64,000 nt of DNA from a virus (lineage: Duplodnaviria > Caudoviricetes). Below, one piece after another: positions 26,346 through 33,288 of the stretch. The notes beneath the pieces were generated by a model that was given only the letters and a program-made list of their open reading frames with translations, searched no databases and was not told the origin of the DNA. The DNA is taken from the IMG/VR virus record IMGVR_UViG_3300031911_000003, positions 11,196 to 75,195 of that record, one strand, 5' to 3'. The first letter of the stretch is position 1, and every line of letters begins with the position of its first letter. A program made the translations under genes and the position numbers.

Positions 26346-26702
26346 ATGAACAGACGATCATTCTTCAAGTGGTGGCTGGCTGCGATGGCTGCGAGCGCGA
26401 TCCCGATCGGAGCCAAGGCAGTGAAGCCGCGGCGCTGTCGCATATGGCTGTCGGAGTGGCGCGCTGGCGATCTGACTCCATGTGCTGCGACACACCGCGA
26501 GCCGGTGACGTTCCGCGACTGTGCATTCGACGAGCGAGTACGATCGGTCAAGCTCAGTGAGCCTCTGTGCTCTGATTCAACGCACGCGGCCCGCGAGCTC
26601 GAGCGCGGTGACGCCGTCTTCCGCGCCTCCGTCGAGCGCTACTCCCGAATCGACCTGCCGAACCAGATCTACGTCGTCCACAGCGTCGAGGTGCTGCCAT
26701 GA
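26346..26702 (+). CDS. Protein with twin-arginine (Tat) signal peptide
   Basis: MNRRSFFKWWLAAMAASAIPIGAKA fits the RRxF(L/F)K motif plus hydrophobic region and AxA. Confidence 0.6.
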   Translation: MNRRSFFKWWLAAMAASAIPIGAKAVKPRRCRIWLSEWRAGDLTPCAATHREPVTFRDCAFDERVRSVKLSEPLCSDSTHAARELERGDAVFRASVERYSRIDLPNQIYVVHSVEVLP

Positions 26703-27391
26703 ATACGGACCTCATGTTCTCGTCAACGACGAACGAACACTTCACGCCACCATGGGTGCTCGACGAAGTCGAGAAGCTCGGCCCAATAGGGCTAGACCCG
26801 TGTGCGCACCCGAAGTCGGAGGCCTCAAGGCGAGCGCGCTACAGCATCTTCTCGCACCCTCGAGCGCCTGATCAGTGGATTCCAGGCGGGAAGATTCACT
26901 GTTTCAACGATGACGGCCTTCAACATGATTGGCATAGGCTTCTCGTCGCAGATGAGATCATCTTCTGGAACCCACCTTATGGGCGCGAGCTCGCGAAGTG
27001 GGCGGCGAAGGGTGCTGCCGAGAACTGCCCGCAGGTGGCGCTCGTCCCCGCGCGCATCGATACGGCATGGTGGCGCAAGCTCGATCCTGTCGCATGGTGC
27101 GCGCTGTCGGGTCGGCTCAAGTTCTGGCACCTACCACACGATTGGATCGATAGCACAAGTGGTCTGGGTGCCGTATGTTCCAAATGTGCCTTGGCAATAG
27201 ATGCCGTCACCCACAAACATCTGCTTGAACTCAAAGCAATTCGACCGACCTGCCCAAACGCCGAGTCGGTTGAGTGCGAGAACAGCGCGCCTTTTCCCTC
27301 GGCGGTGTGCCTGCTGCACGCCGCACACCTGAAGCAGAGGTTCGTCGAGATCTGGTCGCGGCACGGCTTGGTGTATGAACGGGTTCGCTGA
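26699..27391 (+). CDS. Phage DNA N6-adenine methyltransferase (Dam-like)
   Basis: EHFTPPW, LDPCA, WNPPYGR, LVPARIDTAWW motifs. Confidence 0.9.
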   Translation: MNTDLMFSSTTNEHFTPPWVLDEVEKLGPIGLDPCAHPKSEASRRARYSIFSHPRAPDQWIPGGKIHCFNDDGLQHDWHRLLVADEIIFWNPPYGRELAKWAAKGAAENCPQVALVPARIDTAWWRKLDPVAWCALSGRLKFWHLPHDWIDSTSGLGAVCSKCALAIDAVTHKHLLELKAIRPTCPNAESVECENSAPFPSAVCLLHAAHLKQRFVEIWSRHGLVYERVR

Positions 27392-27477
27392 ATTCATCCT
27401 AGCCCCAGCGTGTGGGTTCTTGTATAAATATGACCTCGTTTAATTGCGCCTCTTCGGCGCAGAGAGGTACAAAGAGC

Positions 27478-29121
27478 ATGAACTTTCACGTTTGGGGTTC
27501 TCTGGCATCGAAAATCGCGGAGCAGCGGTATCTACATCCGGGCGAAACGTGGGTGGTGGGTCTAGCACCCCGCGTCTCAACAAACACTTTTTCAACTGTC
27601 AAATCGCGAGGCTGCCCGGTTCCAGAGGGGGAGGTGACTCGCATGATCGCCAACCGCCAGTTTCTTCCCGGGGGTCGGTATCTGTACGCCTGCGGAAGAC
27701 CGCTGCACCAAACGCAGAATTGTCTGTTGTTCTTAGTCGAGGATTCGCGTGAGGGGTGGGCCGACCACTACTACAAGCACGTCATGGGCTTGTCGACGGG
27801 TGCTGGCATCGGAAGTGTCTACAGCAACGTTCGGCAGAAAGGCGCAAAGCTGAACCGTACGGGGGGTGTGGCTGGTGGGCCAATAAACTTGATGCTCGGC
27901 ATTAATGAAGCAGCTCACACTGTACGCCAAGGAGGCGATCGGCGTGCGGCGCTTTGGGCGGGCCTCCATTGGTGGCATCCAGATGCGCTGGAGTATTGCT
28001 CGGTGAAAGATTGGTCTGAGGATGTGCGCCAACGGAAAGCAGAAAATTGGGAAACGCCAGCGCCGCTCGATTACACGAATCAGAGCGTCTGCTACGACGA
28101 CGAATTTTTCCAAGCTGTCGCTGAGCGAAGCACCGAGAAGCGACGTCAAGCTGACGCCGTATATTGGAAAAACGTGGCTCATGCGCTCCGCACAGGCGAT
28201 CCCGGCTTATCTGTCGATTGCGGCGTCAATGCAGGCGAGTGGCTTCGTAACGCCTGCACGGAAGTCAGCTCTCGCGACGACAGCGATATTTGCAACATCG
28301 GAAGCCTGAATTTGGCTCGGTACGAGACACTCGCAGAGTTCGAACGCGACCTACCCTGCGCCGTAGCGTTCTTACTCGCTGGCAGCGAATACAGCGACGT
28401 ACCGTACGAGAAAGTTCGCGTTGTTCGTCAGAAGAACCGTCGGCTCGGTTTGGGCCTTATGGGTGTTCACGAGTGGCTGCTTCGACGCGGCAAAAAGTAC
28501 GGCCCAGATGTTGAACTAGGTCTGTGGCTGGCGGTCTACGCGCGATCAACCGAGATCGCTGCACGCCTTGCTGACGAGTGGAGTCTTTCACGTCCCGTGA
28601 AAACTCGAGCCATGGCGCCCAATGGCACGATTGGCCTCGTGGCCGAGACAACTACTTGCCTAGAACCGCTTCTCTGCGTAGCGAAAAAACGCCGCGTAAA
28701 GCAAGGAGATGAGACGTGGGCGCAATACAGCGTCGATCCTGTCGCTGAGCGCCTCATAAACGAGGGTGTCGAGATCGGCAACATCGAAACGGCCTACGAT
28801 CTCTCTGGTTCACTCGCGGGAATCGAGCGTCGCGTCGCTTTTCAGGCGTGGTTTCAACAATTCGTCGATCACGGCATCGCATCGACGATCAACATCGCTT
28901 CGTGGGGTAGCGCGTCAAACAATGAAGACACCGTGAAGCCGTTCGGCGAGATGTTACTCAAATATTTACCACATCTGCGCGGCATCACCGTATATCCTGA
29001 CGGTGCGCGATCGGGACAACCAATTGTTCCTGTGAGCTACGAAACGGCGCGCAAACATGGGGAAGAGATCGTTTACGAGTCGGCTGATGTCTGTGAGATG
29101 CGCGGAGGAGGCTGTGGCTAG
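27478..29121 (+). CDS. nrdJ: Ribonucleotide reductase, class II (B12-dependent), no ATP cone
   Basis: FLPGGRYL, NC, NACTE, CNIGSLNL, RRLGLGLMG, APNGTIG, GITVYPDGAR and C-terminal CxxxxxxC; no beta-subunit gene nearby. Confidence 0.88.
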   Translation: MNFHVWGSLASKIAEQRYLHPGETWVVGLAPRVSTNTFSTVKSRGCPVPEGEVTRMIANRQFLPGGRYLYACGRPLHQTQNCLLFLVEDSREGWADHYYKHVMGLSTGAGIGSVYSNVRQKGAKLNRTGGVAGGPINLMLGINEAAHTVRQGGDRRAALWAGLHWWHPDALEYCSVKDWSEDVRQRKAENWETPAPLDYTNQSVCYDDEFFQAVAERSTEKRRQADAVYWKNVAHALRTGDPGLSVDCGVNAGEWLRNACTEVSSRDDSDICNIGSLNLARYETLAEFERDLPCAVAFLLAGSEYSDVPYEKVRVVRQKNRRLGLGLMGVHEWLLRRGKKYGPDVELGLWLAVYARSTEIAARLADEWSLSRPVKTRAMAPNGTIGLVAETTTCLEPLLCVAKKRRVKQGDETWAQYSVDPVAERLINEGVEIGNIETAYDLSGSLAGIERRVAFQAWFQQFVDHGIASTINIASWGSASNNEDTVKPFGEMLLKYLPHLRGITVYPDGARSGQPIVPVSYETARKHGEEIVYESADVCEMRGGGCG

Positions 29122-30035
29122 TTTGCAAGTTCCCGACGCGCGGCCTCGAACTCCGCCGCGACTACCAGTGCGCCGAGTGCCAGCCAGCGACCGATGCGGC
29201 GCAGCCCGCAGGAAGCTTCTAGGACCGCGCACAGAGCGATCGAGAAGGCCAGCCAGCCCGACCAGCCGAGTGGCCCCTTGGACGCGGCCAGAGCGCACAG
29301 AAGGGACGCCCCGCGATAGGCTGGGTACACGACGCTTTCCCTCGTGCCGTGCAAGACGAGCCGCAGCCCAAACAGCCCGCAGCCCATCGAGGCAAGAGCA
29401 ACGAGCCACAAGCGCCAGTCGGCGAGCGGCGCCGCAGGCGCAAAGCTGCCCGCCGCAGCCAGGCACAGCGTCAGTCCCATGACCGCGACCTGCCCGGCGC
29501 CGAAGAAGCCAGGCTTCAAGCCACGATCACCCTTGGCCATCCGGACGGCCCGGAGCTTCAGACGTTGCCCGAGTACGTAGGTGCAGGCGAGGAGCAGCGG
29601 AATGGGGAGCCAGCGCAGAGGCTTGTGCAGCGCAGCTAGGAGCACGGCGGCAAAGACGGCTGCGGAGAGCGCAAGGCGCTGCCTCAGTGGGCGACGATCA
29701 AGCGGATCGGGGAAGAGCAGGCACCCGCCCTTGCCGGCGACGACGGCGACGAGCGACGACGGCATGAGCAGCGCCAGCGTTTCGGAGGTGAGGACCAGCG
29801 TCGAGGCGGCGGCCGAGAGCAGTTCGGCCCGCGTCGGTGGCCACATGCGCGGCAGCGGTGCGCGCAATCGGTAGACGAAGCAGCCGAGCGCGTACCAGAG
29901 GGGGATCGCCAGCGCATAGACCTGGAAAGCGCCGAGTGGGTGATGCGCGCCGCCGGCTAGGCCGCAGAGCTTGGCGTAGGTGAAGGAGCACAAAGCGTAA
30001 CCGAGGAGCAGGAACCCGACGCGTGGCTCGTTCAT
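29118..30035 (-). CDS. Multi-pass membrane protein, possibly DMT/EamA-like
   Basis: About 300 aa with roughly 9-10 hydrophobic segments; family assignment is tentative. Confidence 0.55.
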   Translation of the reverse strand: MNEPRVGFLLLGYALCSFTYAKLCGLAGGAHHPLGAFQVYALAIPLWYALGCFVYRLRAPLPRMWPPTRAELLSAAASTLVLTSETLALLMPSSLVAVVAGKGGCLLFPDPLDRRPLRQRLALSAAVFAAVLLAALHKPLRWLPIPLLLACTYVLGQRLKLRAVRMAKGDRGLKPGFFGAGQVAVMGLTLCLAAAGSFAPAAPLADWRLWLVALASMGCGLFGLRLVLHGTRESVVYPAYRGASLLCALAASKGPLGWSGWLAFSIALCAVLEASCGLRRIGRWLALGALVVAAEFEAARRELAN

Positions 30036-30127
30036 GCCTGGATGTTCGCAACCCACGGTGCTTGCGTCTAGCTCTCGAGTCGGAGTAGGTTCAATCGGCT
30101 ATTAGGTTTGAACAGGAGCAAACAGAA

Positions 30128-30994
30128 ATGTCACTGAGAGTCCTTCGATCTGAGCAAGACGCCTCCGTCAACTTCGTCGAAGAGCAGCTCGCCGGCTTCC
30201 TCGAGGCACGTTACGTGCGGCGTCGCGCTGACTACTTCGTCTGCTATCTGAGCAGTCACAGCGGATGCAATCGTGGCTGCGAATTCTGCCACCTGACCGC
30301 GACAGGGCAGACGAGTTTTGCGCCCTCGACGATCAACGACTTCGAGAGCCAGGCACTGTCGGTGCTCCGGCACTATCGCAGAGAGTCGCCGGCCCGCTAC
30401 ATGCACTTCGCCTTCATGGCCCGAGGTGAGCCGCTGGCGAACCCGCATCTGCTCGAGCGCGGGCAGGAGCTGCTGATCCGACTCGGCAACCTAGCGCGCG
30501 ACGAGGGGCTGCCCTCGAAGTTCTGCGTCTCGACGATCATGCCGCAAACGCTGCGCAAGCCGCTCGTCGACGTCTTCGGCTTCGTCTCGCCGACGATCTA
30601 CTACAGCCTCTACTCCGTAGAGCCGGCCTTCCGCGAGCGCTGGCTGCCCACGGCGAAGCCGATCGAGGCCGCGCTGCAAGAGCTCGCAGACTACCAGCGC
30701 TTCAGCAAGAAGATCCTCAAGATCCACTTCGCCCTCATCGAGGGACAGAACGACTCGGCCGACCAGGTCTGCAAGATGTGCGACGCGCTCGACGAGCGCG
30801 GCCTAATCTGCGAGTTCAACCTCGTCACCTACAACCCAGCGACCGCCGCGCAGGGGCGGGAGAGCGCGCCCGAAGTCATCGCCGAGCGCCTCGCGTACAT
30901 CTTGGAGCGCTTTGTCGGAAGGGTGAAGGCAGTCAAGCGCGTTGGCTTCGACGTCAAGGCGAGCTGCGGGATGTTCGTCGGTGGTGAGAAATGA
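30128..30994 (+). CDS. RlmN/Cfr-like radical SAM protein
   Basis: SSHSGCNRGCEFCH (CxxxCxxC), FMARGEPLAN, SLY, GQND, NLVTYNP and ASCGMF parallel the RlmN motifs. Confidence 0.85.
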   Translation: MSLRVLRSEQDASVNFVEEQLAGFLEARYVRRRADYFVCYLSSHSGCNRGCEFCHLTATGQTSFAPSTINDFESQALSVLRHYRRESPARYMHFAFMARGEPLANPHLLERGQELLIRLGNLARDEGLPSKFCVSTIMPQTLRKPLVDVFGFVSPTIYYSLYSVEPAFRERWLPTAKPIEAALQELADYQRFSKKILKIHFALIEGQNDSADQVCKMCDALDERGLICEFNLVTYNPATAAQGRESAPEVIAERLAYILERFVGRVKAVKRVGFDVKASCGMFVGGEK

Positions 30995-31494
30995 GCGCCT
31001 CAAATCTCATCGTCGAGTTCAGACTCCTCCATCCAGATGCGAAGCGTCCCGAGTACCAGACCGGTGGCGCGAGTGGGATGGATCTCTACGCTGATGGTAA
31101 GGAAGCTGAAAATCAGTATGGTGGATTAGACGTTCACTGGACTTGTTTAAAGCTCAGTCCCGGTTGGATCTGGCGCATTTCAACGGGCGTCGCCATCTTG
31201 ATTCCCACCGGCTGGGAGGCACAGATCCGGCCGCGCTCGTCGCTATCTGCAAAGGGCATCCTATGCCAGCTCGGCACGATCGACAGCGACTACCGGGGCG
31301 AATTGAAGGTTGTCCTGGTGAACCTGAGCGGCGAGCCGTTCGCAGTGCGCCGTGGTGAACGCATCGCGCAGCTAGTCTTCGCGCCGGTCGGGCGCGCGGC
31401 GCTTCAGGAGGTGCGCGAGTTCAGCAGCCGGACGAAGCGCGGCGAGGGTGGATTCGGGAGTACGGGTAAAATGAGGTCAGAATGCAAAGTCTGA
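30991..31494 (+). CDS. dut: Trimeric dUTPase
   Basis: All five motifs: GMDL, RSSL, GTIDSDYRGE, RIAQLV, RGEGGFGSTG. Confidence 0.96.
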   Translation: MSASNLIVEFRLLHPDAKRPEYQTGGASGMDLYADGKEAENQYGGLDVHWTCLKLSPGWIWRISTGVAILIPTGWEAQIRPRSSLSAKGILCQLGTIDSDYRGELKVVLVNLSGEPFAVRRGERIAQLVFAPVGRAALQEVREFSSRTKRGEGGFGSTGKMRSECKV

Positions 31495-32679: not shown

Positions 32680-33288
32680 TCACTTCGCCGCATCCACCGC
32701 GTACTCGCCGACGCGCACGAGCAGCATGCAGCCGATGACGCGGCCGACGTTGACGAGATGGTGCTGCGAGGCGCGATAGACGACCTCGACTTCGATCGTC
32801 TCGCCGAAGAGGAGCTCACTAGCGAGGTAGCGCTGCTTCGCGCCGGCCTCTTCGACTTGGCAGACGAGCGCGGCGTAGCCGTCGGGGATGGACAGAGTGA
32901 CGCCCGTCGACAGGCGGCGCGGCGGGTCGTTCGGCCCGACGCTGAGCCCGCAGCGTCCGGCGTGCGACGGCTTCGGCGCGTAGCGCAGCCAGAGCCGGCC
33001 GTCCCTGACCTCGGGTTTCAGTTCGTCGGACTTCGCGAGCGCGGTGAAGCGCAGCGTCGGGGGCTTCTCGGGCGAATTCAGGCAGGCATTGACTTCGTCG
33101 AGGATGTTCCGCTTCGCCTCTTCGAGGCAACGCATCGTCGTCTCCTCACACGAACGGCGCAGCTTGGCGATCTCGTTTGCGAACATCTTCTCGATCTCGA
33201 TCGCCGACATCTTCTCGATTTCGGTCTGCGGTTGCTCTTGCTTCGAGTTCTCTTTCGTCATTGTCGAATAATCCTGCATTCGTTCCAC
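32680..33288 (-). CDS. Catalytically degenerate dUTPase-fold protein with N-terminal coiled coil
   Basis: Keeps LSTGVTLSIPDGYAALV and VGRVIGCMLL scaffold strands; lacks motifs 1, 2, 3 and 5. Confidence 0.55.
   Translation of the reverse strand: MERMQDYSTMTKENSKQEQPQTEIEKMSAIEIEKMFANEIAKLRRSCEETTMRCLEEAKRNILDEVNACLNSPEKPPTLRFTALAKSDELKPEVRDGRLWLRYAPKPSHAGRCGLSVGPNDPPRRLSTGVTLSIPDGYAALVCQVEEAGAKQRYLASELLFGETIEVEVVYRASQHHLVNVGRVIGCMLLVRVGEYAVDAAK

Follow-up and report, generated by a model that had tools for sequence, protein, structure and literature searches.

A putative clade of short phage radical SAM enzymes of RlmN/Cfr type with tyrosine at the predicted position of the resolving cysteine

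We describe a short radical SAM enzyme of an uncultivated phage and the family to which it belongs. By sequence comparison, this family is a phage-only clade of minimal RlmN/Cfr-like proteins in which tyrosine stands for the resolving cysteine. The two-cysteine mechanism has been treated as defining for class A methylases. A 2022 review, in which RlmN and Cfr are the only class A members described, states that these enzymes "use two conserved cysteine residues" (PMC9692996). The phage clade keeps the methyl-carrier cysteine and fixes tyrosine at the second position. It may thus serve as a natural test of the role of the second residue, be it a general base, a radical relay or a disulfide partner. 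Furthermore, it suggests that many large phages introduce a so far unrecognised modification when they infect their hosts. Because the carriers include the laboratory models 201phi2-1, Phabio and CcrColossus, both genetics and mass spectrometry are feasible. Full-text searching of the literature found no paper on this family.

The gene occupies positions 30128-30994 on the plus strand of the analysed window, a stretch of 64,000 nucleotides. The source record is 75,195 bp long and is 61% complete by CheckV estimate, the phage being roughly 120 kb in size. No isolated phage gave a nucleotide or capsid-protein match to it. The ORF of 288 aa is real and intact. Its ATG is preceded, at a distance of 9 nt, by a Shine-Dalgarno-like AGGAG (30114-30118, plus strand, read from sequence). 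The protein matches PHROG 27142 ('Fe-S-cluster redox domain-containing') with an E-value of 5.9e-88, residues 7-284 being aligned to positions 10-299 of the 300-position profile.

The protein consists of a catalytic part only. The TIGR00048 (RlmN) match starts at profile position 74 with residue 6 of the protein, in agreement with the sequence-only reading, according to which the N-terminal domain of RlmN is missing. Upstream of the ATG there are at most 13 more open codons, and the homologues share this start residue, so that no N-terminal domain is hidden. Five members of the family are N-terminally extended (P0122, P0132, P0138, P0214 and P0249), and a Pfam search of these found no extra domain. 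A search of longer proteins found no domain fusion either, a result of little weight. With values close to neutrality, net charge and pI of the family gave no further information.

NCBIfam models of RlmN and Cfr match the protein end-to-end but weakly. TIGR00048 gives an E-value of 6.8e-16 and 58.1 bits against an equivalog cut-off of 290. For Cfr (E-value 3.4e-14), TIGR04432 and NF000424 give 51.0 and 52.9 bits against cut-offs of 550 and 530, respectively. Judged by sequence, the 288-aa protein is an orthologue of neither RlmN nor Cfr. The general Pfam model Radical_SAM (PF04055) reaches 25.6 bits with a gathering threshold of 29.5; the cluster motif and the fold are clearly present. When a profile of the family was compared with solved structures, Cfr was the best match (E-value 4e-26), followed by RlmN (3e-20), and the alignments covered the whole catalytic domain. 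An AlphaFold2 model built from 140 diverse members has pLDDT of 96.2 and pTM of 0.92. Its best Foldseek matches are the RlmN structures 3RFA, 6FZ6 and 5HR7, with TMq of 0.78-0.81, while Cfr reaches 0.65. Beyond RlmN and Cfr, PFL activase (0.59) comes on top of a group including PFL activase, lipoyl synthase and viperin at 0.5-0.6. Glycyl-radical activases (PflA/NrdG) were considered separately; they reach TMq of 0.56-0.59 against 0.8 for RlmN, and the adjacent ribonucleotide reductase (RNR) is of class II type.

To identify the residues which distinguish the family, we counted conservation over 140 diverse representatives with mutual identity of about 50% or less. The CxxxCxxC motif of the radical SAM [4Fe-4S] cluster (C47, C51 and C54; 30266-30289, plus strand) is present in 140/140 of them. 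The motif ASCGMF near the C-terminus (30959-30976, plus strand) contains Cys280 (codon 30965-30967), the equivalent of the RlmN methyl-carrier Cys355. Both the profile alignment and MAFFT place C280 on the AACGQL motif of RlmN/Cfr. C280, G281 and F283 are invariant, and C47, C51, C54 and C280 are the sole invariant cysteines. The two motifs had been listed as kept from the letters alone, and the alignments bear this out. The counterpart of RlmN E105 is E26, located on a beta-strand extension and found in all 140 representatives. M97, the counterpart of RlmN M176, is found in 138. All motifs for making and activating S-methyl-Cys280 are thus kept in the family.

Two further changes which had been read from the sequence are present as described. 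Residues 97-102 form MARGEP (30416-30433, plus strand) instead of RlmN MGMGEP, with A98 in 127, R99 in 133, G100 in 139 and E101 in 129 of the 140 representatives. Residues 160-162 form SLY (30605-30613, plus strand) instead of SLH of RlmN/Cfr; S160 is invariant and Y162 occurs in 138/140. Signatures of PHROG 27142 can be seen in R99 of MARGEP, in Y162 of SLY and in SCGMF at the end, where RlmN has ACGQL.

The most important change concerns the resolving cysteine (RlmN C118, Cfr C105). The sequence-only reading assumed that this cysteine was shifted by one position. It is true that Cys39 (codon 30242-30244, plus strand) precedes RlmN C118 by one residue if positions are counted from the cluster. 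Position 39 is, however, a variable hydrophobic core position, occupied by V in 44, C in 42 and I in 26 of the 140 representatives. The residue that aligns with C118 and C105 is Tyr40 (codon 30245-30247, plus strand). This placement comes from the comparison of the family profile with RlmN and Cfr from PDB, which is ungapped from the strand to the cluster, and for C118 it is confirmed by a second, independent alignment (MAFFT) that includes five canonical RlmN proteins from genomes. In the AlphaFold2 model, residues 36-42 form a beta-strand containing both C39 and Y40. Because of strand geometry, residue 39 in the model should face away from residues 40 and 42, and this opposite orientation fits its character of a buried V/C/I position. 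Tyrosine is found at position 40 in 139/140 representatives. According to both alignments, the resolving cysteine is replaced by a near-invariant tyrosine and no one-residue shift is involved. The sole member with cysteine at position 40, P0266, branches first in the family clade (SH-aLRT 97 and 96). Its basal position fits a scenario in which cysteine was replaced by tyrosine and the replacement was then fixed. The original proposal is supported in so far as the protein is a phage radical SAM enzyme of RlmN/Cfr type whose active site is altered and whose N-terminal domain is absent.

What reaction might such an active site perform? As the simplest reading, we tentatively propose a stand-alone class-A-type radical SAM C-methylase of phages, reduced to the catalytic barrel, in which a Cys/Tyr pair replaces the Cys/Cys pair and RNA adenine is the likeliest target. 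Alignments and the structural model bring this proposal close to an even chance, but not up to it. One molecule of SAM would methylate Cys280. A second SAM would be cleaved to the 5´-deoxyadenosyl radical, by which the S-methyl group would be activated. A methylene radical would thereby arise and add to an sp2 carbon in the substrate, C2 or C8 of adenine being the likeliest. Tyr40, standing in place of the cysteine, would then remove the proton and/or relay the radical, the link between enzyme and substrate would be broken and the C-methyl group left behind. Tyrosine could in principle act as a base and/or a radical relay. Cys/Tyr relays occur in spore photoproduct lyase, which is another radical SAM enzyme acting on nucleic acid. 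In RlmN/Cfr, M176 stabilises the cysteinyl radical, whose reduction then comes from an unidentified source (PMC9692996).

The indispensability of the resolving cysteine in known enzymes has to be counted against the Cys/Tyr reading. C118 and C105 were reported as indispensable for resolving the enzyme-RNA cross-link, and RlmN C118A as well as Cfr C105A arrest at the covalent adduct (PMC9692996). The phage enzyme might accordingly be a single-turnover cross-linker that stops at exactly such a Cys280-CH2-substrate adduct, and so tags or blocks host nucleic acid or becomes attached to nucleic acid of the phage. The presence of cysteine at position 40 in one basal member only would agree with this. 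Yet the invariance of Tyr40 suggests a catalytic job beyond the mere loss of cysteine, and an Fe-S enzyme consumed stoichiometrically would be costly. In addition, gp434 of phage 201phi2-1 is outside the virion proteins identified by mass spectrometry, according to the annotation of that phage. We consider the cross-linker very unlikely.

An equally low estimate applies to a radical SAM reaction that involves no methyl transfer, with a substrate of protein or metabolite type and with Cys280 and Tyr40 as hydrogen-atom donors. Such a reaction could explain why Pfam and NCBIfam matches are distant only, and why the family has specific invariant residues without a described role (S8, D11, S13, N15, R28, R32, R99, Y158, Y159, Y162, R169 and W172). 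Nevertheless, the methyl-carrier cysteine and the counterparts of E105 and M176 are kept in RlmN positions, and matches to glycyl-radical activases and viperin are much weaker than those to RlmN. A function as an activase of the adjoining RNR would also be hard to reconcile with the type of that enzyme, since class II RNRs require no activase.

Coming back to the proposed Cys/Tyr methylase, its likeliest target would be an adenine in tRNA or rRNA of the host or of the phage, at a site or in a context unlike that of canonical RlmN. The site or context should differ because the RNA-docking N-terminal domain is absent and because RlmN is co-resident in the bacterial genomes checked. RlmN R206 contacts G29 of tRNA (PMC5130265). 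In the profile alignment, this residue falls on a non-basic stretch of the phage family. Docking of tRNA in the manner of RlmN is therefore unlikely, given also the missing N-terminal domain. Two more observations count against the Cys/Tyr and RNA reading, namely the sub-threshold score of Pfam Radical_SAM and the fact that no tRNA gene was found in the phage record (75,195 bp, 61% complete).

The genes around the radical SAM gene offer a different perspective. It is directly followed by a dUTPase gene (30991-31494, plus strand; Pfam dUTPase E-value 2.6e-28; 137 bits with NCBIfam dut, which exceeds the model's cut-off of 103). The stop codon of the former and the start codon of the latter overlap in ATGA, 4 bases in our reading of the sequence. 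Judging from this overlap, the dUTPase is translationally coupled to the radical SAM gene. The earlier claim of an operon with dUTPase is thereby confirmed, and the dUTPase is genuine. The claim that the gene lies beside RNR needs a correction. The RNR gene (27412-29121, plus strand) does end about 1 kb upstream, but a divergent ORF on the opposite strand (29118-30056, minus strand) separates it from the radical SAM gene. Because of this intervening gene, the operon comprises radical SAM and dUTPase, but not RNR. The divergent ORF encodes a hydrophobic protein of 312 aa without a match in Pfam, NCBIfam or PHROG. Its homologue (cluster c429) was found in the related locus L053; the ORF is therefore likely to be a genuine gene for a membrane protein in this group of phages.

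The RNR is a compact enzyme of class II (NrdJ) type, as indicated by Pfam Ribonuc_red_lgC (E-value 2.7e-42) and by TIGR02504 NrdJ_Z, which gives 191 bits and so stays below its cut-off of 400. With 569 aa it is unusually short; it scores best with class II NrdJ models, far under their cut-offs. RNRs that adjoin the radical SAM gene in the relatives L036, L042 and L053 measure 918-1162 aa. Directly upstream of RNR there is a gene for a Dam-like DNA adenine methyltransferase (26699-27391, plus strand; PHROG 111 E-value 1e-19, Pfam Dam sub-threshold). Downstream, a head module including major head protein, virion protein and a protease-like fusion converges on the radical SAM/dUTPase pair. An ORF of 202 aa at 32680-33288 on the minus strand has no PHROG match.

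In this lineage, the coupling with dUTPase and the nearby RNR are no less suggestive of nucleotide metabolism than of RNA. The enzyme might be part of a nucleotide-metabolism module and methylate a carbon of a free (deoxy)nucleotide or of phage DNA, giving rise to a new base, e.g. 2- or 8-methyladenine. Loss of the RNA-docking N-terminal domain would fit a small or different substrate. The pairing recurs in near relatives (L053, L036 and L042), where dUTPase or RNR lies within two genes of the radical SAM gene, and is limited to them and the source phage. Other lineages have neighbours of a comparable kind. In one lineage of jumbo phages the radical SAM gene follows a gene for NAD-dependent DNA ligase, in a T4-like lineage it is situated between UvsX and a UvsY-like gene, and dCMP deaminase and Dam methylases occur among neighbours elsewhere. 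On the other hand, we know of no class A radical SAM methylase that acts outside RNA. Replication and nucleotide modules of phages also gather unrelated auxiliary genes. Moreover, the neighbours differ by lineage, none of them is constant, and several lineages have the gene in tRNA arrays instead. Modification of nucleotides or DNA is thus unlikely in our view, though it ranks second among possible targets, behind RNA adenine and ahead of the cross-linker and of the reactions without methyl transfer.

The survey of neighbours comprised 60 loci, whose ORFs were clustered, and Pfam tallies of 125 and 136 neighbouring proteins (261 in total) from 36 dereplicated lineages. No gene family recurs across lineages as a constant partner in these 60 loci, judged by Pfam matches of the 261 neighbours. 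Since neither a fused partner nor a constant neighbour was seen, the enzyme appears to work alone. Genes of NAD salvage were not seen among the neighbours; the closest were the NAD-dependent DNA ligase of the one lineage and single matches to PARP and AAA_28. As the neighbours vary by lineage, the substrate is left undecided by genomic context.

In four lineages (L015, L016/L007, L046 and L048) the radical SAM gene is located within tRNA arrays or at their border, and in Caulobacter and Brevundimonas phages it lies 2.5 kb from a gene for CCA-adding enzyme. About 8 of the 36 dereplicated loci have a tRNA within 8 kb. According to a rough estimate, the arrays together with an 8-kb margin cover about one quarter to one third of the two contigs that were worked out. 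Given this coverage, about 8 of 36 is near chance, and we rejected the association with tRNA as support and retain it as a lead only. The arrays themselves are extensive. There are 17-46 Rfam tRNA matches per record in L015, L016 (contig of 250,813 bp), L007, L046 and L048, and array length ranges from about 12 kb in the L048 record up to some 35 kb for the main block in that of L016.

Another group of tRNAs precedes the radical SAM gene by about 2 kb on large phage contigs (103-453 kb). They are tandem tRNAs with the CTA anticodon, i.e. of amber suppressor type (label Pyl in ARAGORN), at L021:5871-6026, L038:5871-6026 and L037:6147-6221. Their presence hints at TAG recoding in these phages.

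The family is large and conserved, which speaks of selection and counts in favour of the Cys/Tyr methylase. It matched 2448 metagenomic proteins in a set clustered at 90%, and at E<1e-30 its members fall into at least 314 clusters (50% identity). The closest metagenomic homologues are 74-86% identical to our protein. Homologues from isolated phages show 43-46% identity and come from 201phi2-1 (gp434), Psa21, Phabio, D6, RVTF4, Viktualia, CcrColossus (gp283), CcrPW and eight Brevundimonas jumbo phages. These PHROG 27142 proteins have the same length and motifs as ours; unlike in those jumbo phages, the copy described here resides in a phage of about 120 kb and is coupled to dUTPase. A scan of viral contigs with a single sequence gave no match, whereas the alignment-based scan revealed 48 loci in IMG/VR, many of them on contigs of 250-465 kb. 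About 75% of the Atlas clusters are viral. A pattern scan of 185,579 species genomes, which may undercount, yielded 10 loci, mostly on short MAG contigs. The family is essentially viral and almost absent from bacterial genomes. Among 151 genomes from the bacterial family to which Achromobacter anxifer belongs, just one carries the gene, and for this reason we regard the bacterial copies as mobile or prophage-borne. In Achromobacter, Acetobacter and Roseivivax, most neighbours of these copies have no Pfam match.

Distribution is also relevant to a further explanation, i.e. ordinary RlmN/Cfr chemistry on A2503 of 23S rRNA or A37 of tRNA, performed by a shortened version of the host enzyme through which methylation of ribosomes or tRNA would be raised or modified in the course of infection. 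RlmN and Cfr are the nearest families and the nearest solved structures, and several database records already label PHROG 27142 members as RlmN. This label is difficult to accept with scores 5-10 times under the equivalog cut-offs and with both the N-terminal domain and the resolving cysteine missing. In a quick maximum likelihood tree (IQ-TREE), a long branch sets the family apart from RlmN as a clade of its own; the branches of this tree are long and deep placements uncertain. In addition, a canonical RlmN (372-439 bits) is present in each of the five copy-bearing bacterial genomes checked, which would make the same function redundant. Taking both sides into account, ordinary chemistry seems to us quite unlikely, even somewhat less plausible than action on nucleotides or DNA.

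The likeness to known enzymes can be specified as follows. RlmN, the C2-methyltransferase of 23S rRNA A2503 and tRNA A37 (PDB 3RF9/3RFA, 5HR7 and 6FZ6), shares with the phage enzyme the fold, the CxxxCxxC motif and the three residues named above (E105, M176 and C355). It differs by its N-terminal helical domain and by Cys118, and it is a bacterial housekeeping gene, whereas the present enzyme is carried by phages. Cfr, the C8-methyltransferase of the same 23S rRNA nucleotide that causes antibiotic resistance (PDB 9P0P), shares the catalytic layout; here again, C105 corresponds to Tyr40 and the phage enzyme lacks the N-terminal domain.

Finally, the exchange of cysteine for tyrosine might change the very outcome of class A catalysis. 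The product could be a C-methyl group or a persistent Cys-CH2 link on a novel substrate (dATP/ATP, phage DNA, or host RNA to be inactivated), or else methyl transfer could proceed through a Cys/Tyr radical relay. We hold this broader idea to be a long shot, about as unlikely as modification of nucleotides or DNA. If true, it would mean a new pathway of nucleic-acid modification in many jumbo phages.

Short RlmN-like proteins of phages are not confined to PHROG 27142. Gp104 of Klebsiella phage 05F01 (L074:4929-5858), about 26% identical to our protein, represents a separate clade; it has valine at the C118 position and ends with SSCGMF. Its gene is flanked by genes with ADP-ribosylation and phosphoribosyltransferase annotations and by anaerobic RNR NrdD, and a separate NrdG is annotated nearby. 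Gp170 of Tunturiibacter phage Tunturi_5 belongs to a third clade, with identity of about 26%, which keeps cysteine at the C118 position together with the CGMF ending. A short form exists in cells as well. The Achromobacter anxifer locus L068 (G006:C4:63017-63817) has a third RlmN-like paralogue of 351 aa, which matches TIGR00048 from profile position 70 with a sub-cut-off score of 220 bits. This paralogue, a short cellular form to be distinguished from the phage family, keeps the C118-type cysteine and a GGCGQL ending.
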